Source of the DNA: Promethearchaeia archaeon
GTDB taxonomy: Archaea; Asgardarchaeota; Lokiarchaeia; Sigyniarchaeales; SOKP01
Reading direction: 5' to 3'
NCBI GenBank assembly: GCA_029856155.1
Contig: JAHQWL010000075.1
Coordinates: forward strand, 32,001 to 96,000
Length of the DNA: 64,000 bases
Positions 31,917 to 51,218 of this stretch are shown here, piece after piece (the stretch's first letter is position 1; each line of letters opens with the position of its first letter). Below the pieces are notes generated by a model. It saw only the letters and a program-made list of their open reading frames with translations. It made no database searches and had not been told where the DNA came from. The position numbers and the translations under genes are program-made.

Positions 31917-34223
31917 ATGATAACCACACGCGAATCTATAAGTTATCAGTACTCATTGATTTTTGGATATTCGTCTCCAAATGATGTTGTTGTTGGAGAT
32001 GTAATTGGTGTTGGAAGGCTAACGAGAAAAAAAGTGAATGAACTATCGCAAGAAGTTATTAAATATTTAACAATGTATAATGCGGTTTTAAGGGATTATA
32101 CCGGGGCTGAATTATTTAGTATTGAGTTTGATTTATACAACTTTGATGAAAAAAGTGCTCGAATTAATATTTACCCAAAATCAATGATATTTATACCAGG
32201 TAAATTTAAGGACTGTGAAAGTCTATTACTTGCTTTAAAACCTGAGACGGGGGTTTTAGATATACATAAATCTAGAGAATCATTGAATAATATAAGTAAG
32301 CTATTTTTTGAAGTAGAAGAGTTTTCTAATCGCCCAGAATTAAGGAAAGAAAATAAAGAACAAGTATATGACAAATTTGCTACTAGGTTTAATAAAAAAC
32401 TTTATGGAGAACTAATTGAAGATAAATGGAACAAAAAATTGATTGGTTTAAGTAAAACTCTGCCAACAGAAAAAGAAATGTTGAATACATATGCTAAGGT
32501 TATCTCTAACGTTGAGGTTTTGTGGTATAAAAAACCAATAGAGATTAAATTTTTAAATCCGAAATTTCAAAAATTTAGACCGCCTTTTATTGGGCAACAA
32601 GCTATTGAACATCTTAAGTTTTCAATATCTGAACCAAGTGCTAATTTTATTGTAGACAAGACCTTAGATCTAGGCACTAATCTTATTAATTTAGCAAATA
32701 CCGGAACTTTAGATGAATCTCAAGATGAATTAATTATTTTTATGATTAATCATATTAACCTTAAGATAAAAGAATATATTGAATCTCAAACAGCAGAATG
32801 GCTTGTATCCAATGTAAATAAGTTATTAATTGATTTACAAGAATTTTTAAATAAATTTTTAGAATATTCTAGAACTTTTCTCGGTACTGGTGAAATGGGG
32901 AATTTAAATGAATTACTTAGCAAATATGAACATTTTATATTAAATAAAGCGAAATTAGAAGGCGAAGATTTCGAGAATATCTATAAAATAACAGAAAAAT
33001 TTATCGAACAATCACTAACCCAAAAAGATAGTTTACGGATAATAGAATTGAGTTCTGTATTTAACTATTTTTCAGAAATTACCAATGCAAGTCTTAGTTT
33101 AATTAGAAAATCACTTCCAAAATATCTTTCTTATCGTCGATTAAAAACTCTAACTATTGAATTGATAGATAATTTAGAGGAAAAATTTAATCAGGAGCGA
33201 AAACCAGCAAAAGTTTTAGGACAGAAATTAATAAGGAAATTTAAAGAATTTCTTTTTAACCAAATTGAAACACACCCAATTATATTAAGAAAGGATCTTA
33301 AATTTAATGAAAAAGAACTGATAAATGAGTTTAATTTATTAGTGAATAAGAATGTTGATATTTTCTTTAACAATGTAGCTTTAAAAATAGATGATTTAGT
33401 ATCTTTTGCAGAAATCCAGATGGAATCCAATATAAATAGTATAAGGAATCACCTAGAAAAATTTAAGAAGTTTTCAAGAGAATTAAATTATTTATTAAGC
33501 TACGTTCTAAGGTATTCTACGATAAAACGTTATATTAAGGAAGAACCTGATAAGGAAATCAGTGATCCTGTAACCTTCTCAAATAGATTTCATAGATTTT
33601 TAGAAAAGAGAATTGGAGGTATAAATTTAGAATGGAAATTTTATATACTTGAGTGGATTAAAGATTATTCTAAAAAATATCTTAAGCCAGAAGAACAAAG
33701 AACTTGGACATTAACAGAAGTATATGATGATTTTATTGGATATTTTGAAGAGAGAGAATTAGATGAGCAAAAAATAGAAAATTTCTTAAAATTCTTAGAC
33801 ATTTACATTCCAAAATTAATAAATCCCGAAGAGAGAAAATTGTTACTTGAATTTTATAAAAATTATGAACTTAGTATTGATATCAATATTGAATTTCCAA
33901 AGTATGTCAAAAATAGTATTAAAAATGAGTTAAAAAATCTAAATCCACAATTGGAAAATATCATTCCTTTCAATTACTTTTATCTAGATGAGGATGAGAC
34001 ATTTTACAATTATGTTAAAAATTCAGAATTAAAATACTTTTCAAAATTAATACCAAGACCTTTAACTGTGACTCTAAAACATATTTTAACAAATGAAGAA
34101 AAAGAAATATTTAAAGGAGAGCTTTTTCATGTAATAGATTTCAAATTTTGGCATGATAATGCTAGATTTGAATTATCAGATAATTTTAAAGAAGTCTATA
34201 GAGAATGGGTGAGAGAATTATGA
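31917..34223 (+). CDS. large hypothetical protein
   Basis: 768-aa ORF, no motif recognised. Confidence 0.8.
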   Translation: MITTRESISYQYSLIFGYSSPNDVVVGDVIGVGRLTRKKVNELSQEVIKYLTMYNAVLRDYTGAELFSIEFDLYNFDEKSARINIYPKSMIFIPGKFKDCESLLLALKPETGVLDIHKSRESLNNISKLFFEVEEFSNRPELRKENKEQVYDKFATRFNKKLYGELIEDKWNKKLIGLSKTLPTEKEMLNTYAKVISNVEVLWYKKPIEIKFLNPKFQKFRPPFIGQQAIEHLKFSISEPSANFIVDKTLDLGTNLINLANTGTLDESQDELIIFMINHINLKIKEYIESQTAEWLVSNVNKLLIDLQEFLNKFLEYSRTFLGTGEMGNLNELLSKYEHFILNKAKLEGEDFENIYKITEKFIEQSLTQKDSLRIIELSSVFNYFSEITNASLSLIRKSLPKYLSYRRLKTLTIELIDNLEEKFNQERKPAKVLGQKLIRKFKEFLFNQIETHPIILRKDLKFNEKELINEFNLLVNKNVDIFFNNVALKIDDLVSFAEIQMESNINSIRNHLEKFKKFSRELNYLLSYVLRYSTIKRYIKEEPDKEISDPVTFSNRFHRFLEKRIGGINLEWKFYILEWIKDYSKKYLKPEEQRTWTLTEVYDDFIGYFEERELDEQKIENFLKFLDIYIPKLINPEERKLLLEFYKNYELSIDINIEFPKYVKNSIKNELKNLNPQLENIIPFNYFYLDEDETFYNYVKNSELKYFSKLIPRPLTVTLKHILTNEEKEIFKGELFHVIDFKFWHDNARFELSDNFKEVYREWVREL

Positions 34224-39158: not shown

Positions 39159-40418
39159 CTATTTTATTCGCGTGGTTTTATTTTTTTTAGAATTTTTTTT
39201 TCTTGTATTTTTTAAATTAGATTTATTTTCTTCTATTGGAATACTTAGTTTTCCTTCATCAAATTCCTCTCCTTCTTTAAGTTTGGGGGAATATTTATTT
39301 GCAACTACAGGTTCAGATTCCTTTGGTAAAAGTTTTCTCATCCATTCTGGAAAAGCAGTTGTAATTTGCAAATTGGTTTTTAAAACAATATAAGTCTCAC
39401 CATTATAATTTAATTCTTCAATCACATCAAATTTCTTTAAAAAATCAATATTTTCCATTAAGGAATCCAAAGATTTCTTTGAAACTAGTTTAGGTAATTT
39501 ATCTTTTGAAATTAACCCATTTCTTAATTCTGAGAGGACATTATATTTTTTAGAATCCGCCATTATTTGAAATAAAGTAAAAGCATCTTCTTTTATTTGT
39601 TCCTTAGTTTTCTTTTCATATTCACTATAGTATTCTTGAACTTTGGGAAGGAGTAATTCGATCAATTCTGGCTTATCATCAATATACTCAATGACACTAT
39701 CCGGTGGTATCCTTTCAGCGTTTACTTCTTTTAATAAAAGTACGTATTTCTCTACTAAACCTATTTGGTTAATAAAAATAAATTGTTTATCTACTAAAGT
39801 ATCAATAATCTCATTAAAATCTTTTCCTGGAAACTTCTCAATATACCATTCTCTTAACCATTCTAGTGGTATTGGACCTTTAGATAATTTTTCTAATGTC
39901 TTGAATATATGCTTATCATTTAATAAAATCGCTATCTTCTCTTCCTCTGTTTTTTCTCTTGTATCTTCAATAATTGCCCAATATAGATTATTTACCCACG
40001 CTTCTATTAAAGATTCATTTTTAACTATATTCTCCTGATCATCTTCATCAAAATTATTTATATCATTTATATAAAATGCTGTAAAAATTTCTTCATTTGA
40101 TTGCAACCGTTCTGAGAATTCAGTGCATAGAAGTGATATTTTCTCTTCAATTTCAAGAGGAATTTGTTGGTCAAGAATAATTGAAACCATTAACATTTCT
40201 TTATTTCCTCGCGCCCAATCTGAATGAATCTCAAAGTAGTAATTCATTGATTTTAGATTTTCAAAAGAATGAGTAAAAAAACCTTCACTAAATTGCTGAT
40301 CCATGATGTTGGCTACTTTTCCTGATAGTTCCTTTTCTAATATATTCTTTGGGTAAGAATAAAATACTAATGGACCAATTTTACGATGAAAATATGATAA
40401 GACGACGATAGTTTTCAA
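39159..40418 (-). CDS. longin/uDENN-like (NPRL2-type N-terminus) protein with wHTH-like C-terminal segments
   Basis: IVVLSYFHRKIGPLVFYSYP resembles the F-H-x3-GP longin start of NPRL2/DENN proteins; ARG motif. Confidence 0.65.
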   Translation of the reverse strand: MKTIVVLSYFHRKIGPLVFYSYPKNILEKELSGKVANIMDQQFSEGFFTHSFENLKSMNYYFEIHSDWARGNKEMLMVSIILDQQIPLEIEEKISLLCTEFSERLQSNEEIFTAFYINDINNFDEDDQENIVKNESLIEAWVNNLYWAIIEDTREKTEEEKIAILLNDKHIFKTLEKLSKGPIPLEWLREWYIEKFPGKDFNEIIDTLVDKQFIFINQIGLVEKYVLLLKEVNAERIPPDSVIEYIDDKPELIELLLPKVQEYYSEYEKKTKEQIKEDAFTLFQIMADSKKYNVLSELRNGLISKDKLPKLVSKKSLDSLMENIDFLKKFDVIEELNYNGETYIVLKTNLQITTAFPEWMRKLLPKESEPVVANKYSPKLKEGEEFDEGKLSIPIEENKSNLKNTRKKNSKKNKTTRIK

Positions 40419-42230: not shown

Positions 42231-43187
42231 ATGAATGGTTCAAAAGAATTAAATAAAATTCTTTTTTGTGGTTTAGAAAGTGGTGGAAAAACTTCAATTT
42301 TGCTATTATTAGATAAAAAATTTAGTTTATTACCTACAGTTAAACCGACTATAAAAGCAAAAAGAACTTTCTATACAAACTCATTATTGGGAACCTCAAT
42401 TGTCCGTTGGGATTTAGGGGGTCAAAAAGGTTATAGAAAAATATATTTGGGTAATAAGAGCAAATATTTTACAGAAACGCAATCAATATTCTATGTTATA
42501 GATATTCAAGCACCTAAAAAATTTGAAGAATCATTAAGATTTCTTAAAGATATTGTAAGTGTAACCTCAGAGTCACATCCCGAAAATTTTCAGTTATTAA
42601 TATTACTCCATAAATACGATCCTGACATTAAAAATAAGAAAGAAATTTTAGATCATATCAATTACCTAGAAAATAAAATTTCATCTGCCATTAACAAAGT
42701 TAAGTTTTCTATTTTTAAAACTTCAATATATGATGAATCAAGTCTATTGAAGGCTTTTTCTGATGGTGTGTTTTTTGCAACACATAAGTCTAAAATGTTT
42801 GAAACCTTATTGAAAGAATATATGGGTAAAACTTACAATAGTTCTATGCTTCTACTTGATCAGAATTGCTTTATAATTGCTAGTAGAACAACAAATGAAA
42901 GTTATCAGAAAATTTGTGAAGCTATCGCTCCAAGATTAACTCAAGCATTAGAAAAATTAGAGGAATGGGATATAAATACAATTGATATTGTAACAAATAT
43001 AGAATTTCCAGAGAAACAATCAATCTATCAAAAAGAGGGAATAATCTTTCTTAGAAAATTAGATATAATTAAAACGAGATTTTATTTAATCGCACTTTGT
43101 CTAAATAAGAAAGTGAAAATTAAATCATATGAATATTTACCATTGTTAGCAGATAATTTAAAAAATTTACTAGAGAGTTTTGATTAA
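42231..43187 (+). CDS. Rag/Arf-like small GTPase with C-terminal roadblock-like domain
   Basis: GLESGGKTS, PT, WDLGGQ, HKYD, TSIYD; tail SSMLLLDQNCFIIAS. Confidence 0.85.
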   Translation: MNGSKELNKILFCGLESGGKTSILLLLDKKFSLLPTVKPTIKAKRTFYTNSLLGTSIVRWDLGGQKGYRKIYLGNKSKYFTETQSIFYVIDIQAPKKFEESLRFLKDIVSVTSESHPENFQLLILLHKYDPDIKNKKEILDHINYLENKISSAINKVKFSIFKTSIYDESSLLKAFSDGVFFATHKSKMFETLLKEYMGKTYNSSMLLLDQNCFIIASRTTNESYQKICEAIAPRLTQALEKLEEWDINTIDIVTNIEFPEKQSIYQKEGIIFLRKLDIIKTRFYLIALCLNKKVKIKSYEYLPLLADNLKNLLESFD

Positions 43188-43372: not shown

Positions 43373-44566
43373 ATGATAGCACCATCCAATGTAAATAAAT
43401 ATTATGTAGGACCTAAAGCTTTATTTGACCCAGACTACATCCCCCCCCACCTATTATATAGAAAAAAAGAAGAAGATTCCCTCTTTTCTATTTTAAATGA
43501 TTCAATTTCTGATGAGTTTAATCTCAACATACTCTATCAAGGAATTAATGGTATTGGAAAGAAAGTAATAGTTAATAAAGTATTAAACGATCTTTTAAAC
43601 CAAAATAAAGAATTCGTTAAAATTAATAAAATTTGTGTAGATTGTAAAGAAAAGAATCCTGAAGAATTAATTTTTTTATTGTTAAGTGAAATTAACGGAT
43701 TGTCAAATCTAAATTTCGATGTCCGACCACTATTAAATTCAGAAATACATCAATTATGGAATACGTTTAAGTTCATTTGTAATAGATTTGATTCTCATTT
43801 ATTTTTTATCTTTAATAACATCGAATATTTAGAACCCGAAATTTTTAATAAATTCTTACAATTTGGCAAAGAGTCAAATATAACTCTAATATCTACTGTA
43901 AATAAAATTATACAACCTGGAACAATGGAATTATTCTCTGAATTTGATTTGAAAAAAAGATTAAATTTTTATAATTATCAAGAGCTTTATTCTATTCTTA
44001 AACAAAGAGTATTATTAAGTTTTTCACAGGAAATAGATAGAAACCTAATTAGATACATAACAGATTTAATCTGTGAGCAATATGTACCAGTTCCGGGTAA
44101 AGGAATTGAAATCCTTCGAGATTTATATCCATTATTAAAAAACAAAAATATTTTAGGCAATTTTGATTTATTAGACATTTGTCAAAATAAATTTGACTCT
44201 TTTCAAATTTCTGATGAATTTAGTATGATTAACTATCTTTCTGAAGAAGATATATTGACAGTAATATTTTTAGATAATTTTTCAAATTATTTTATTAGTA
44301 AAAATAAATATTATATTTCTATAAAAGATTTACACGAATTATATGAAATTTCTTGTGAAACTTTAGAATATGAAAAAAGTATTATTGAATTTCGTAAAAT
44401 AACCGAAGAATTATTGAATATTGGAATTGTAAAACCATCAAAAAGAACATTTCATAAAAAAAGTACTCATGAAAATATTAATGGTTTAAATAATGATTCT
44501 TTCTTTATATTAATGAATCCTAAACAAATTAAGGTAATTATTGATGCAATTTTTAACCAGTGTTAA
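43373..44566 (+). CDS. divergent Cdc6/Orc1-like AAA+ protein with degenerate ATPase motifs
   Basis: LFDPDYIPPHLLYR..E, GINGIGKK, FNNIE, YNYQELYSILKQR, C-terminal wHTH. Confidence 0.8.
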   Translation: MIAPSNVNKYYVGPKALFDPDYIPPHLLYRKKEEDSLFSILNDSISDEFNLNILYQGINGIGKKVIVNKVLNDLLNQNKEFVKINKICVDCKEKNPEELIFLLLSEINGLSNLNFDVRPLLNSEIHQLWNTFKFICNRFDSHLFFIFNNIEYLEPEIFNKFLQFGKESNITLISTVNKIIQPGTMELFSEFDLKKRLNFYNYQELYSILKQRVLLSFSQEIDRNLIRYITDLICEQYVPVPGKGIEILRDLYPLLKNKNILGNFDLLDICQNKFDSFQISDEFSMINYLSEEDILTVIFLDNFSNYFISKNKYYISIKDLHELYEISCETLEYEKSIIEFRKITEELLNIGIVKPSKRTFHKKSTHENINGLNNDSFFILMNPKQIKVIIDAIFNQC

Positions 44567-44736: not shown

Positions 44737-47700
44737 TTGACTCATATTAAAAAAATTTCTATGAGTGGTTTCAAATCTTTTGGAGATCGAACAGTAACTA
44801 TCAAGCTCTCTAGTGGATTCACATGCATCGTAGGACCAAATGGGGCGGGTAAATCTAATATAATAGATGCTCTATGCTTCTCGTTAGGCAGATTAAGCAA
44901 AAAAACTATGAGAGCAAAAAGCTTAGAGGATCTAATCTTTGCTGGCTCACGAGGTAAAAATCCCTCCCAGAGAGCTTCTGTTACATTATATTTTGACAAT
45001 TCTGATAATGTTTTTCCAGGAGTGACTGGTGATTTTGAGATTACTCGCATTATTAAAAGGGGTGGTGGGGGAGGATATAAAATGAACGGAAAAAAAGTCA
45101 CCCGTCAGCAAATACTTAACGCTTTAGCCGCGGCAAATATTGATCCTGATGGTAGTAATCAATTCGTATTACAAGGAAAGATTGTTGAATTAACACATAT
45201 GAATCCTGAAGATCGCAGAAAATTTATTGAGGAATTAATAGGGCTTCAAAAATACGACGAAATGAAGGATGTTACTCTAAAGGAATTAGAAAAAGCAGAA
45301 AGAGATTTAGGACAGTTTGAAGCAATCTTCAAAGAAGTATCATCCCAACTGAAAAAAGTTGAAAAAGAAAAAAATGATGCTTTAGCTTGGAAAGAATTGG
45401 ATGAGCAAATAAATTTCTTAAATTCACAGTTAATTGCCTTGAAAATTTCAAAATTAAGAGAAGAAGAAGATGAATTAGAAAAAAAAATTGACGTTTCTTC
45501 AAAAATCGTTGAAGAATTGCAAGAAAAAATAAACCGGCAAGAAGATGTATTAAAACAAGAATCTCTTGTTATGGATAATATCCAAAAAACTATTACCGAC
45601 AAAGAAAAGGAAAGAGAGCAAATAACCGAAAATATAACTCAAATAAAAACTCAAATATCTTCAAGTCAAACAACTTTAAATTTAGATATAAAATCTATTG
45701 ATAAACTAACTAAAGAAATTGAATCCTTAGAAAGTCAGCAAATGAAACTTGAGGAGGGACAGACTTTTGATTCATTAATAGAAAGTGTCTCAAATGAAAT
45801 TTCAGAAAACGAAGATCATATTGAAGAAGCTAAAAAAGAAATTGAAAAAAGGCAACAAAGCCAAGCTGAACTAGACTTTAAAATAAAAAATAATGAAGAT
45901 GAAAAATCCCTTTTTAAAGCAGAAATTTCTAAAATACAACAAAGTGTATCATCTAATAACGCTCAAATTAAGGTTTTAAGAGGAAACATCAGAAAAAATG
46001 AAGAAAAGAAAGAAAAATTAGAAAACGAATTACAAAGGTTAAAAAAAGATGCTGAAAGCATCGATGAGGCTATTGAAGTCACCAAAAAAGCAGAATCAGA
46101 AATTAGAAATAGAATAAACCAATTGAATATTAAAATTTCTAAAGAAAATCAAAATCAAAAAGATTTAGAAAATAACATTAACTCCATCCAAGCAGAAAAG
46201 AATCAGCTAAATTCTAAATTGGCAAACTTTCAAGCTACATTGTCCTCTATAAGTACAGAAATTAAAATGAATCGTGAGAGCATACAAGAATTAAATGAAA
46301 AGAAAACTTCTATAGAGCAAAAGATTACGGATTTAAGTAAAGGTAAAGATGCTGAAAAAGCAGTAAAGGAATTACTGAGTGAAAATGATATTATTAATAA
46401 AGATTTAAGCGACTTAAAAGCAAAATTAAAACAAGAAAATTCAGTCTATAGGAAAAGTGAACAAGATCTAGAATTATTGAAAATGAAGAAATATTCTTGT
46501 GAATCAGAAATCAGTGATAATAATGCAAAGATTGATAATATTAATACAGAACTAAAAATTCTTACAAAAGAATTAACATCCATGGATAGAGAGAAAAATA
46601 ATTTAGAGTTGCAAGTAGATGCTCAAAATAACACTCTTACAGATATTACAAGTTCTACTGAAAAATTTATTATTAAAAAGGATAATGTACAAAGACGTTT
46701 AGAGGATCTTTCACAAGAAAAAGAAAATTTAACAAAAAAAATTGAGTCTTCAGAGGAAGAATACGAGAAAAATACAAAAGATATTACAGGAATTCTCCAA
46801 ATTTTAAATATGCTCACACAGAATATTAATATCTCAGTTGAATCTATTAAGGGTAATATACAACAATCAAACGCAGAGGCAATTGAATCTTCAGCAGAAG
46901 ATTTTAAAAAGTATATATTAGATATCATTGATATTATGAGAACAGTTGAGGATATTGGTGAAGACAGGGATAAATCTACTGAAATGACAGAAATGCTAGG
47001 TTCTATAATGCAAACTTTAAAAATGTTTACTGATAATGCTGATGACACAATTAGTCAATTAATCGATAAAGTAAAAGAATCAGCTGATATTGAAGTACAA
47101 AGTTCAACCTCTACATTTGATAGTTTTATTCAAGATCTAATGGAAATTCTTGAAAATGTATATCTCTCTTTAAGAAAACTAACTATGTCTAAAAGTCAAG
47201 AACTATACAAACAATTGGAAGAAATTTCAGATACTATTAAATCGCAAACTGATGATTTTAATAAAATTGAGAAAAAATTAACTGAAAGTAATATCCAAGA
47301 AAAACACCTATCTGAAAATCTTTCAACCTATAATAAAAGACTAAATGAAATAGATAAAAGAAATACTGAATTAACTGAAAGAATTAAAAAAGGAGAAGAA
47401 GCGATTAGTGAAAGAGAGGAAGTAATTAAGACCAGACAATCGGAAGCTAACACATTGGATAATGATATAGAGAAATTAAAGAAATTAAAGGATACATATT
47501 GGGATAACCTTTCTACAATTCAAGATGATATTGATAAAAAACAAAAAGAATTAGAGAATCTGAGAGAAAAATTACAAGAATTGCATGGAATCCAGAATTT
47601 ATTTGATAATATTACTGAAATTGATGATAACATAGAAAAATTGAATAACCTTATTGCAGAAAAGAAAAATTTAATAATAAACACAGAAGAAAATATTAAA

Positions 47701-49188
47701 AATATTCAAGAAGAACAAAACTCATATCAAAAAAAGATTGATGAACTAGTTCTAAAAAAGCAGAATTTCTGGGAAATAACAGAGAACTTGCGAAAACAAA
47801 TCGATGATGAAAATAAAGTGCTTGAAGATACAATGGATCGTTTAAGAGCACTTGAAAATGTAATGAGGATTATCAACTCTATTGAAGATATTAAAAAAGA
47901 AAATAATGATGCTAAAAATAGCGTTGAAACTTGCTTAAAGGATATTGAAGGATTAAATTCTCAGGTTGAAGAGATCCAAAAAAATGTTGATCAAAAACAA
48001 GAAGTGTTAGATTCTTTAAGAAATGAAAAAACAGAAGAGTTAGAATCACAGAAAGCAGCCCAAAAGAAATTAAATAAATTGAATAAAGATTTGCAGAAAT
48101 CTCAAGGGAAATTGAATGAGTTAAATAAAAATAAAGAAAGAGAACAGAAGATTATTGGGTTGCATCAAGATATAAAAGATACTGAAGAACAAATTGAATC
48201 AATAACAAAAGAATTAGGCAATTTTAAAGAGAATTTGGATAGTGAAAATGAAAAGAAAACCGAGAAACAAAAGGAGATTGATAAATTTATACAAGAAAAA
48301 GATGAATCATGGAAAAAACAAAAACAATATCAGAAAAATATAACTGACTTAAAATCAGATCTCTCTATGGAGAATTCTAAAATCAACAATTTTGAATCAA
48401 AAAAGATAATGTGCACTGATCAAATTGAAACTTTATTCCAGCGTTCTAAAGAATATGGGTCATTACCTCCTGTAACTGACGGACTTTCAGAAGCAGAATT
48501 ACAATCAGATATTGTAGAAAAAACACAGAACAAAAAAACTCTTGAACCTGTGAATTTAAAAGCAATTGAACAATATGACACTGTAAAGGAAAGATTTGAT
48601 GAGATAGATATGAGACGACAAACAATACAGAGAGAAAGGAAATCAATTCTAGATGCTATTGATAAAATTGAACTAGAAAAGACAAGAACATTCATGAAGG
48701 CTTATCACGAGATAAATAGAGAATTTAGTAGGATTTTTCAAAAGCTCAGTCCTGGTGGTTCAGCAAAAATGATTTTGGATAGACCAGATAAGCCATTTGA
48801 AGGAGGTATTAGCATAGAAGCAAGACCAAGGGGTAAAAAAATCAGCTCATTAGAAATATTAAGTGGTGGTGAAAAAACATTAGTAGCGTTATCTTTTATA
48901 TTTGCTGTTCAAGAATTTTATCCCGCTCCATTTTATGTAATGGATGAGATCGATGCGGCTTTGGACGGTCCAAACGTCCACAGAGTCTCTACAGTCATAA
49001 AGGAATTTGCTTCACAAGCTCAATTCATGGTAATAAGTCATAGAGAAGAGAATATTGTAAATGCAGATAGGATATACGGTGTATCCATGCAACAATCAGG
49101 TATTACAGACATATTTAGTGTTGATTTAGAGGAAGAGGCAAAACGTATTTTAGAACTTGAGGATATTGAGCCAACTATTACAGATTAA
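44737..49188 (+). CDS. smc: chromosome segregation SMC protein, extra-long, without canonical hinge
   Basis: GFKSF, GPNGAGKSN, VLQG, PVNLKAI, LSGGEK, MDEIDAALD, ISH. Confidence 0.95.
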   Translation: MTHIKKISMSGFKSFGDRTVTIKLSSGFTCIVGPNGAGKSNIIDALCFSLGRLSKKTMRAKSLEDLIFAGSRGKNPSQRASVTLYFDNSDNVFPGVTGDFEITRIIKRGGGGGYKMNGKKVTRQQILNALAAANIDPDGSNQFVLQGKIVELTHMNPEDRRKFIEELIGLQKYDEMKDVTLKELEKAERDLGQFEAIFKEVSSQLKKVEKEKNDALAWKELDEQINFLNSQLIALKISKLREEEDELEKKIDVSSKIVEELQEKINRQEDVLKQESLVMDNIQKTITDKEKEREQITENITQIKTQISSSQTTLNLDIKSIDKLTKEIESLESQQMKLEEGQTFDSLIESVSNEISENEDHIEEAKKEIEKRQQSQAELDFKIKNNEDEKSLFKAEISKIQQSVSSNNAQIKVLRGNIRKNEEKKEKLENELQRLKKDAESIDEAIEVTKKAESEIRNRINQLNIKISKENQNQKDLENNINSIQAEKNQLNSKLANFQATLSSISTEIKMNRESIQELNEKKTSIEQKITDLSKGKDAEKAVKELLSENDIINKDLSDLKAKLKQENSVYRKSEQDLELLKMKKYSCESEISDNNAKIDNINTELKILTKELTSMDREKNNLELQVDAQNNTLTDITSSTEKFIIKKDNVQRRLEDLSQEKENLTKKIESSEEEYEKNTKDITGILQILNMLTQNINISVESIKGNIQQSNAEAIESSAEDFKKYILDIIDIMRTVEDIGEDRDKSTEMTEMLGSIMQTLKMFTDNADDTISQLIDKVKESADIEVQSSTSTFDSFIQDLMEILENVYLSLRKLTMSKSQELYKQLEEISDTIKSQTDDFNKIEKKLTESNIQEKHLSENLSTYNKRLNEIDKRNTELTERIKKGEEAISEREEVIKTRQSEANTLDNDIEKLKKLKDTYWDNLSTIQDDIDKKQKELENLREKLQELHGIQNLFDNITEIDDNIEKLNNLIAEKKNLIINTEENIKNIQEEQNSYQKKIDELVLKKQNFWEITENLRKQIDDENKVLEDTMDRLRALENVMRIINSIEDIKKENNDAKNSVETCLKDIEGLNSQVEEIQKNVDQKQEVLDSLRNEKTEELESQKAAQKKLNKLNKDLQKSQGKLNELNKNKEREQKIIGLHQDIKDTEEQIESITKELGNFKENLDSENEKKTEKQKEIDKFIQEKDESWKKQKQYQKNITDLKSDLSMENSKINNFESKKIMCTDQIETLFQRSKEYGSLPPVTDGLSEAELQSDIVEKTQNKKTLEPVNLKAIEQYDTVKERFDEIDMRRQTIQRERKSILDAIDKIELEKTRTFMKAYHEINREFSRIFQKLSPGGSAKMILDRPDKPFEGGISIEARPRGKKISSLEILSGGEKTLVALSFIFAVQEFYPAPFYVMDEIDAALDGPNVHRVSTVIKEFASQAQFMVISHREENIVNADRIYGVSMQQSGITDIFSVDLEEEAKRILELEDIEPTITD

Positions 49189-49213: not shown

Positions 49214-50224
49214 ATAATTTCAAAAAATGAACAAAATTCAGTTGAAAAACATAATTTTAATGAATGGACTATAAAAGATTTAAGGGAATTTGCATCGAAA
49301 AACAACATTAAAATTCCTTCTAAATCTAAAAAAAAGGATATTGTTGAATTACTACAAAATATAACATCTAATCCCGATTTCGTTGATCGATCCCTAGAAG
49401 AAGAAATGGAAGAACCTGAAATAGAATTAGTTGCTGAGTTTGATGATGATGAGGATCTTGCATTATTGAGAAAAGAGAAAGCTGAATTAAAATTTTGGCA
49501 AAAACCACCCTTTTCAAGTCTTTTAGATACAGAATTAGCAAAAGAATCCGACATTGCATTTTATGATTTATCAAAATTAGTAGATACTTTTTTTGATAAT
49601 ATGCTACATGAAGAATTGATTAATTATAAGATTTCTGGAATTGCGCTTAAAACGTCGGCATCTTTACATCATTACAAAATCTCAAGTATAATAAAAGAAG
49701 AAGAACAAATTCAGAAAAGAGAAGAACTAGAAAAATTCAGACAAAGTCATTCTAGAACAATCCCAAAAGCATTACCTCAGCCAATTTCCCCTAAAATGCA
49801 AATTGCTACCAAAGATGAACTATTTGATGCTATGCGATCAGCTATTATTGAAGTTATGCAGAATAAAGAAAAGTTAAAAAGAAGAAGAATGCGAAGAGAA
49901 GAGCTTAAAGATCAGAAGATCCAAATGAAGTCTAAAGCACAATTACCCAAAGAACTCTTAAAACATATTAGTGGAAAGGAGCAAACAGTTGAAGAATTGC
50001 ATGAATCATGGTACAATCGAATAAAAGCTACCATCAATTTAAACAATAAAGAGACTAATATTTATGATTTAATGAATATTATTAAAAATGAAGAAAAAAG
50101 TAGTATAGGGCGGAAATTTTCATTAGTACGTATGTTTTTAGCTTTAATGTTTTTATCTACTGGAAGTAAGTTATACTTATCTCAAGAGGAAGATTTCCAA
50201 AATATTTCAGTAGATATTGGTTAA
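49214..50224 (+). CDS. scpA: ScpA-like kleisin with N-terminal HEH/SAP-like extension (probable ATA/ATT start)
   Basis: Between smc and scpB; YDLSKLVDTF, ISGIAL..SA.L..YK, C-terminal FLALMFL...LYLSQEEDFQNI; in-frame upstream extension after GAGGT. Confidence 0.8.
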   Translation: MISKNEQNSVEKHNFNEWTIKDLREFASKNNIKIPSKSKKKDIVELLQNITSNPDFVDRSLEEEMEEPEIELVAEFDDDEDLALLRKEKAELKFWQKPPFSSLLDTELAKESDIAFYDLSKLVDTFFDNMLHEELINYKISGIALKTSASLHHYKISSIIKEEEQIQKREELEKFRQSHSRTIPKALPQPISPKMQIATKDELFDAMRSAIIEVMQNKEKLKRRRMRREELKDQKIQMKSKAQLPKELLKHISGKEQTVEELHESWYNRIKATINLNNKETNIYDLMNIIKNEEKSSIGRKFSLVRMFLALMFLSTGSKLYLSQEEDFQNISVDIG

Positions 50225-50264: not shown

Positions 50265-51218
50265 TTGGAAGAAGAACAGAATGGAGAACCAAATGAGGAA
50301 ATAGAAAATAATCATGCTAACACTTTTGATGAAGAAAATATAGAAGAATTTGAAGAAGAAATTACAGATTTAGAAAATGTGTCTGAAGAAGAGTCTATAC
50401 AAAGAGATTCAAATGATTCAATAGAAGAAATTGGAGATAATGTCATTGAAGAACAAGAAATAGAATCAGAAGATATTGAGAAAACAGAATTAACTGAAGA
50501 ATATGATAACGAACCAGAAAATCTTCTAATAGAAGAATCTATGGATACGCAAATTGTTGAAGATGGAAAAATTATAGAAGATGATATGTCAGAAAGTACC
50601 ATAGTTGATGAAAAAGCATTAGAACTTGATGAAAAAGCTCTTCGTCGAAATTTCATTGAGGCCGCTTTTTTTGCCGCTGGAGGTCCTTTAACAATAGAAG
50701 AGTTATCAAATAAATTAGAATTTTCAAAAAAGGAAGTAGAAAATTTAGTAAATGAATTAGCCTTTGATTATTTAGAGCGTACTACGTCACTAATAATAGC
50801 ACAAATTGGAGATAGATATCAAATGCAAATTAGACCAGAATACACAGAAAAGGTATCCAAATTTGCAAAAGGGGGGGCAATAGCAGAGAGGTATTTAAGA
50901 ACTTTGACGATTGTTGCTCTAAAGCAACCAATCTTAAAATCAATGGTGATAAAATTAAGGGGTAGCGGAGCATATGAGCATGTGAAATACCTTTTAGACA
51001 ACGACTTCATAAAAGCCGTAAAAAAAGGAAGATCTCACGAACTATCAACTACTGATAAGTATGCTGAAATGTTCGGATTGCCAAAAGATATAAGATTGCT
51101 GAAACAAGCTATGATTACTCAATTAGGACTTGAAGAAGGAGGAAAAAGTGAGCCTTCAGGTGAAATTGAGAACGCGGATCAAGGTGAACCTTTGAGTGAA
51201 AGTGAAGAAGAAGAATAA
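50265..51218 (+). CDS. scpB: ScpB (kite) with long acidic N-terminal extension
   Basis: IEAAFFAAGGPL, LRTLTIVALKQPI, LRG, TTDKYAEMFGL. Confidence 0.92.
   Translation: MEEEQNGEPNEEIENNHANTFDEENIEEFEEEITDLENVSEEESIQRDSNDSIEEIGDNVIEEQEIESEDIEKTELTEEYDNEPENLLIEESMDTQIVEDGKIIEDDMSESTIVDEKALELDEKALRRNFIEAAFFAAGGPLTIEELSNKLEFSKKEVENLVNELAFDYLERTTSLIIAQIGDRYQMQIRPEYTEKVSKFAKGGAIAERYLRTLTIVALKQPILKSMVIKLRGSGAYEHVKYLLDNDFIKAVKKGRSHELSTTDKYAEMFGLPKDIRLLKQAMITQLGLEEGGKSEPSGEIENADQGEPLSESEEEE

Follow-up and report, generated by a model that had tools for sequence, protein, structure and literature searches.

We analysed a 64,000-nucleotide stretch of DNA (positions 32,001 to 96,000 of the forward strand of contig JAHQWL010000075.1, assembly GCA_029856155.1; henceforth the window) from a Lokiarchaeia genome, in which a single uninterrupted open reading frame at 44737-49188 (+) encodes a 1483-aa SMC protein. 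It is followed by scpA (kleisin; 49214-50224, +) and scpB (kite; 50265-51218, +). It is preceded by a degenerate Cdc6/Orc1-like gene (43373-44566, +) with degenerate Walker A and B motifs, which lies directly upstream of smc in most loci of this family but not in other families, and whose role is unproven. Further upstream are a Rag/Arf-like small GTPase with a C-terminal extension (42231-43187; PF04670, E 1e-23) and a 419-aa ORF without a Pfam hit (39159-40418), i.e., a typical Asgard signature-protein neighbourhood. The SMC heads are of the condensin type. Specifically, TIGR02169 matched with an E-value of 5e-186 and TIGR02168 with 614 bits, over its cut-off, while Rad50 models reached E 1e-32 or weaker (71-111 bits, far under their cut-offs of 700-1087). 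All ATPase motifs are canonical: Walker A (44833-44856; aa 33-40), R-loop (44908-44916; aa 58), Q-loop (45163-45177; aa 146), ABC signature (48859-48873; aa 1375), Walker B/D-loop (48934-48966; aa 1400) and H-loop (49033-49044; aa 1433). A sigma-70 promoter scan, which does not suit archaea, returned only chance-level hits, and neither expression nor read support was examined.

The sequence-only reading had proposed that the midpoint of this protein (46780-47210, here aa 682-825) contains neither an SMC hinge nor a Rad50 hook but acidic amphipathic helices, and our analysis confirmed this observation. A Pfam scan for the hinge (PF06470), a significant hit to which had been specified in advance as grounds for rejection, returned nothing at E<=1 on the whole protein and nothing on aa 500-1000. 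A hinge HMM built from 39 Asgard hinges scored -0.2 bits, against 92-220 bits for the listed training hinges and 191 and 31 bits for two held-out ones, although one very degenerate hinge (from locus L139; L labels denote loci and G labels genomes of our Asgard set) scored only 5. HHalign comparison of the apex with the hinge gave a probability of 0.5%. A predicted canonical hinge fold, the other outcome that would have counted against the proposal, was likewise not obtained, as AlphaFold2 on a 57-row alignment predicted five helices and no strand (pLDDT 81). We found no CxxC in the protein or in the apex region of 29 homologues, and no G-x6-G-x3-GG motif in the protein, although the latter is weak evidence by itself since many true Asgard hinges also fail the strict pattern. 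The architecture does not reflect chance or an artefact: none of 120 listed homologues had PF06470, and apex identity within the family was 65-74%, compared to 37-56% in the adjoining arm windows.

To describe what occupies the apex instead, we examined its predicted structure, repeats and conservation. The apex module (46759-47196; aa 675-820) consists of four predicted amphipathic helices of about 30 residues, a (46771-46863), b (46873-46962), c (46978-47079) and d (47095-47187), with a turn at about aa 743-747. The three helices singled out by the sequence-only reading lie at aa 683-705, 723-735 and 794-815. The module is a duplication of a ~70-aa helix-helix unit, with the first copy (helices a-b; 46780-46962) homologous to the second (helices c-d; 46990-47172; HHalign 98.1%, E 1e-13). 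It is acidic, with 14 K/R against 28 D/E and a net charge of -14 (-11 to -23 in 29 homologues), and contains 4 Gly and no Pro. Strongly conserved hydrophobic columns make up 26-35% of the apex helices but 14-17% of the arms, so more than a two-helix coil is buried, as expected for a four-helix bundle. We found no relative in Pfam, PDB sequences, PADLOC or the ESM Atlas (PDB sequence searches and Atlas features gave only generic coiled coils), and an apex profile found only about 35 strong hits among 1.84 billion representative proteins, in a library without taxonomy. Folded alone, the module was modelled as a compact four-helix bundle over aa 674-820. Foldseek against PDB found nothing at E<=0.001, while structural alignment (VIA-align) gave Z-scores of 13-15.8 to designed bundles, the p130Cas FAT domain, TIP47 and the vinculin tail; such scores are generic for helical bundles. 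The FAT, vinculin and talin type of bundle matched with Z 13-14 at 7-10% identity, below designed bundles and without significant sequence similarity, which leaves homology to these domains, as opposed to mere shape, undecided. A comparison with MukB, MksB, JetC and RecN apices had been suggested beforehand; no MukB, JetC or RecN apex was among the listed VIA-align or Atlas rows, which does not exclude such a relationship.

The arms are unusually long, at approximately 1.45 times the normal length. The span from Q-loop to signature is 1230 aa, against about 945 aa in hinged relatives. Scaling from the 344-aa, 47-nm arm of B. subtilis gives a rough estimate of 500 aa and 68 nm. Profile autocorrelation peaked at 195 (with a weaker peak at 97) in the N-arm and at 90 and 180 in the C-arm. 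Homologues of 1299 aa from Sigynarchaeum lack exactly one unit on each side of the apex, namely 97 aa of the N-arm (46210-46500; aa 492-588) and 90 aa of the C-arm (47323-47592; aa 863-952), the two units facing each other across the apex. This matches the 91-aa functional period and the ~99-aa superhelical period reported for Smc arms (PMC5344682).

Both partner genes were as the sequence-only reading had stated. ScpB, which has an acidic N-terminal extension, was clear (PF04079, E 5e-33), whereas ScpA scored weakly in Pfam but aligned over its full length to typical Asgard ScpA (HHalign 99.8%). The scpA gene probably starts about 65 codons upstream of the called ATG, at a non-canonical ATA or ATT behind a GAGGT motif, which adds an uncalled N-terminal SAP/HeH-like domain (49214-49405; PF10281, 28.3 bits, over cut-off); several relatives show the same truncation under standard start codons. 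Homologous kleisins at these loci carry that domain, a lysine-rich tail, a small zinc-binding motif or what looks like a helix-hairpin-helix pair, while typical Asgard ScpAs and the two second kleisins seen do not. That extra DNA binding on the kleisin offsets the acidic apex is a hypothesis only. A kleisin and a kite were co-encoded in most loci examined.

We next investigated the distribution of the apex. The apex profile hit 131 of 154 genomes of this order (one through a non-SMC protein only) and 2 of 246 other Asgard genomes. Both outside hits lie on short contigs and are probably bin contamination: that in G218 nests inside one genus of the order, and G194 has three near-identical-scoring copies. 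Named homologues are Promethearchaeota/Lokiarchaeia and include those of the cultured P. syntrophicum (QEE14997.1) and L. ossiferum (UYP46603.1). The long smc is split by a stop or frameshift in G006 (L055) and by an N gap in G038 (L043), probably through sequencing or assembly errors. In a scan of the phylum, most genomes of four families (labelled f12-f15; for example 20 of 21 in f13) had no TIGR02169 match at E<=1e-60, and so may lack a condensin-type SMC or have a very divergent one.

Whether the genome has a second, hinge-bearing SMC was a question posed by the sequence-only reading. We found one hinge, in a 1155-aa SMC on another contig (C26) that groups with the SMC5/6-type proteins and is followed by two short genes that look like a kleisin and a kite; most genomes of the order have such a hinged SMC5/6-type complex. 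No second condensin-type SMC, ScpA or ScpB was found in this 97% complete assembly. By contrast, 24 of 154 genomes of the order, including both cultured species, also have a hinged condensin-type paralogue (QEE17671 in P. syntrophicum, UYP45082.1 in L. ossiferum), mostly with a second scpB nearby. A second scpA was found in two of five genomes probed, where it lies elsewhere in the genome (PF02616 is too insensitive for these kleisins). The paralogue was not found in the 54 genomes of this genus, none of which gave a strong hinge hit, or in the 42 of the next largest; as these are drafts and kin, this is not proof of absence. Two genomes that carry the hinge-less SMC and no full hinged paralogue contain stand-alone ORFs of 233-245 aa with a strong SMC hinge (E 4e-25) and no heads (L110:5024-5758:- and L111:4719-5417:-). 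In addition, one Helarchaeota-type genome (G059; 1 of 160 genomes) encodes a 1260-aa SMC with condensin-type heads, no hinge and a single CxxC at aa 622, at the apex (L078:3236-7015:+), which looks like a natural Smc with a zinc hook.

The module also occurs outside this architecture. A non-SMC family of 920-1290 aa (L103:2984-5746:- and L095-L102; DSAG12_01461 in P. syntrophicum), of unknown function, carries two homologous apex modules with their flanking coils (HHalign 99.8% and 98.0%), a beta-rich region and a lysine-rich tail. It is absent from this genome and was seen almost only in one other, related family. Moreover, an SMC fragment in G051 (L054:11-3589:+) has two modules in tandem, at aa 118-262 and 398-544 of the fragment, and an 878-aa ORF without a Pfam hit in a genome of this genus (G145; L106:1036-3669:-) has one and a half.

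To place the protein, we built head trees, an analysis that had been proposed at the outset, using Asgard sequences only. The hinge-less proteins formed one clade with support of 100 inside the condensin-type group, and apart from the SMC5/6-related paralogue. The best trees put this clade next to hinged Helarchaeales and Hodarchaeales SMCs (100; 94/92 under C20), whose hinges are degenerate and already net acidic (-2 to -10). However, an AU test did not reject grouping with the hinged paralogue of the same order (p 0.17), leaving the origin undecided. Either way, the hinge-less state is most simply read as derived and order-specific.

Considering this, the interpretation offered by the sequence-only reading, namely a different dimerisation module and loss of a basic DNA-binding hinge in a lineage near eukaryote origins, was only partly supported. 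Hinge and hook are indeed absent, and a different, conserved helical module sits at the apex, is acidic and unlikely to bind DNA, and most likely dimerises (an inference from models). The claim nevertheless requires several qualifications. The cell is not hinge-free, given its hinged SMC5/6-type complex. The loss of a basic hinge overstates the change, because the hinges of the nearest hinged relatives in the preferred tree are already acidic. As the trait is confined to one order, and Hodarchaeales and Helarchaeales SMCs keep hinges, it looks like a derived speciality rather than an ancestral state for eukaryotes, and does not bear directly on the eukaryotic ancestor. Finally, since an unrelated zinc hook can replace the hinge in B. 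subtilis (PMC5344682), hinge replacement is known to be tolerable.

Our preferred explanation, held with moderate confidence, is a homodimeric Smc-ScpAB complex in which the hinge was replaced by a helical zip. In this view, each arm would continue into an extended antiparallel hairpin about 70 residues long (helices a-b up, turn, c-d down), whose extra hydrophobic face packs against the same hairpin of the partner SMC, parallel and in register, to give a two-layer four-helix bundle much like a chemoreceptor signalling-domain dimer. This would close the far end of the ring and favour a juxtaposed rod, with ATP-driven head engagement, ScpA and ScpB working as usual and DNA handled at the heads and kleisin rather than at the acidic apex. 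The two-module protein provides a natural test case. Its model (pLDDT 88.6, pTM 0.61) shows module 2 as two unbroken helices (241-362 and 367-434), and none of the 50 listed fold matches lies inside one module: ranges such as 44-437 fit a base layer of a,d,a',d', and 77-402, 85-408 and 88-390 fit a tip layer of b,c,b',c'. Because a resembles c and b resembles d, a lone chain can satisfy the same contacts by folding back, which would explain the compact single-module model. This packing is read from first and last aligned residues rather than from coordinates, comes from a different protein and rests on 16 sequences, and no homodimer model of aa 644-859 of the SMC itself was obtained, which is no evidence either way. 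The two models thus leave dimerisation at the distal arm end undecided, with indirect support from the two-module model and a fold-back monomer as the alternative. Further support comes from the natural arm variants, which differ by exactly one 97/90-aa unit per arm, in line with the 91-99-aa period that functional Smc arms obey; from B. subtilis, in which hinge dimerisation is essential yet the fold of the dimerisation domain is not (PMC5344682); and from the finding that this is the only condensin-type SMC, with the only ScpA and ScpB, found in the genome. What our data establish directly is the loss of the hinge, the intact motifs, the gene context, the conservation, the repeat structure and the distribution, while the all-helical fold and the module-module packing in the two-module protein are predictions, and dimerisation of the SMC by the same contacts and DNA loop extrusion are inferences. 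No experiment shows dimerisation, ATPase activity, DNA loading or expression, and DNA entrapment and loop extrusion are not shown.

An unlikely alternative, though the strongest of those remaining, is that the apex is a compact intramolecular four-helix bundle (FAT/vinculin/talin-like in shape) that caps the arm and docks a partner or anchor, with SMCs pairing only through ATP-engaged heads and ScpAB, or through weak bundle-to-bundle contact, and the ring open or loosely closed. The single-module model, which could represent a stable monomeric cap, the pseudo-symmetry given by the a-b/c-d repeat and the portability of the domain (i.e., its presence in a non-SMC protein) are consistent with this. 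By contrast, the fold matches are generic, the model appears not to fold back when two modules are present, and Smc without distal dimerisation is non-functional in B. subtilis. More doubtful is that the hairpins pair antiparallel, tip past tip, as in RecN, giving a long linear dimer or polymer with heads at opposite ends that tethers distant DNA rather than extruding loops. The all-helical apex, the very long arms and a hairpin with two hydrophobic faces, which could pair either way, would allow this, but the two-module model implies aligned tips, the heads match Smc and not RecN (E 1e-186 against 9e-6), a kleisin and kite are co-encoded in most loci examined, and arm variation by the superhelical period suggests heads held in phase. 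We consider it similarly improbable that the complex has been repurposed as a structural tether or scaffold (for example chromosome to membrane or cytoskeleton, possibly pairing with the two-module protein), with the hinged SMC5/6-type complex folding the chromosome. The presence of that complex, the coexistence of the long and the hinged condensin-type paralogues in about 20 genomes, which suggests different jobs, and the SAP/HeH-like domain of ScpA speak for it, while the intact ATPase motifs, heads 58-99% identical across the order and the absence of the two-module protein from this genome speak against it. Lastly, a frameshift, a mis-assembly or a hinge too divergent to detect can be largely dismissed, since, although hinges of related Asgard SMCs are degenerate and Pfam misses or barely finds some (L139, L137), those still show the Gly/Pro-rich alpha/beta pattern by eye, whereas this apex has 4 Gly and no Pro and its model has no strand, and the same architecture occurs in over 100 independent assemblies, including closed genomes.

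The role of the hinge (DNA gate, DNA-binding foot or mere clasp) divides current models of SMC action. A more far-reaching possibility, which we put forward only tentatively, is that an order-wide Smc-ScpAB motor, with a zipped four-helix bundle that can neither open as a gate nor bind DNA on arms of about 70 nm, serves as the sole condensin-type SMC of most genomes in its family and still extrudes loops. If true, this would show in nature that loop extrusion needs only a closed rod end, against models that need hinge opening or hinge-DNA contact. As P. syntrophicum and L. ossiferum encode both the hinge-less and a hinged version, the two can be compared side by side, and the need for a hinge can be tested directly. 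The finding also raises the count of SMC complexes in some Lokiarchaeia to three.

We found no description of this apex in the literature searched, which included few subscription papers, but related systems are known. The example smc-kleisin-kite cluster of a 'condensin/cohesin-related' P. syntrophicum operon in van Hooff et al. (10.1101/2024.01.07.573240; genes _810, _809, _808) is most likely this hinge-less locus (DSAG12_00820, minus strand, about 319 kb from the SMC5/6-type gene they number _495), as inferred from gene numbers, strand and spacing; the authors do not mention a missing hinge (the word is absent from the supplements and has three generic uses in the text). SMC-family proteins with neither hinge nor CxxC hook were reported as an oceanic cluster of Actinobacteria-like metagenomic genes (Sussfeld et al. 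2025, PMC12153180), for which we saw no replacement module or kleisin context described; their sequences were not compared here, so a common origin was not examined. Chemoreceptor (MCP) cytoplasmic domain dimers (e.g., PDB 2ch7, 3zx6), in which hairpin plus hairpin gives a parallel four-helix bundle, were the top natural Foldseek rows for the apex model (E 5e-3 to 1e-2, weak), but without a Pfam MCP hit or significant sequence match this is an analogy of shape only. The protein is not a Rad50/SbcC, lacking both the zinc hook and Rad50-type heads. RecN is an SMC-like ATPase that also dimerises through a helical apex, but it is about 560 aa long with no kleisin or kite, and its model scored only 24.9 bits here (TIGR00634; cut-off 408). 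JetC models of the MukB/MksB/JetC (Wadjet) group matched at E 1e-16 or weaker, mostly on coiled coil, and the neighbouring genes had no PADLOC hit. The protein works most like canonical Smc-ScpAB (B. subtilis, Pyrococcus), with which it shares the heads, all ATPase motifs, antiparallel arms, the smc-scpA-scpB order and, within Asgard, placement among condensin-type SMCs, while differing in the 146-aa helical apex in place of the alpha/beta hinge, the longer span between Q-loop and signature, the arm repeats and the added N-terminal domain of ScpA. Also close is the engineered B. subtilis Smc(Zh) chimera (Burmann et al. 2017, PMC5344682), which likewise combines Smc heads and arms with an unrelated dimerisation module and shows arm length changes in steps of about 91-99 aa. 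That swap suggested that the hinge fold is dispensable in B. subtilis, which lowers the surprise; the present case is natural, conserved across an order, helical rather than a zinc hook, and built on much longer arms.
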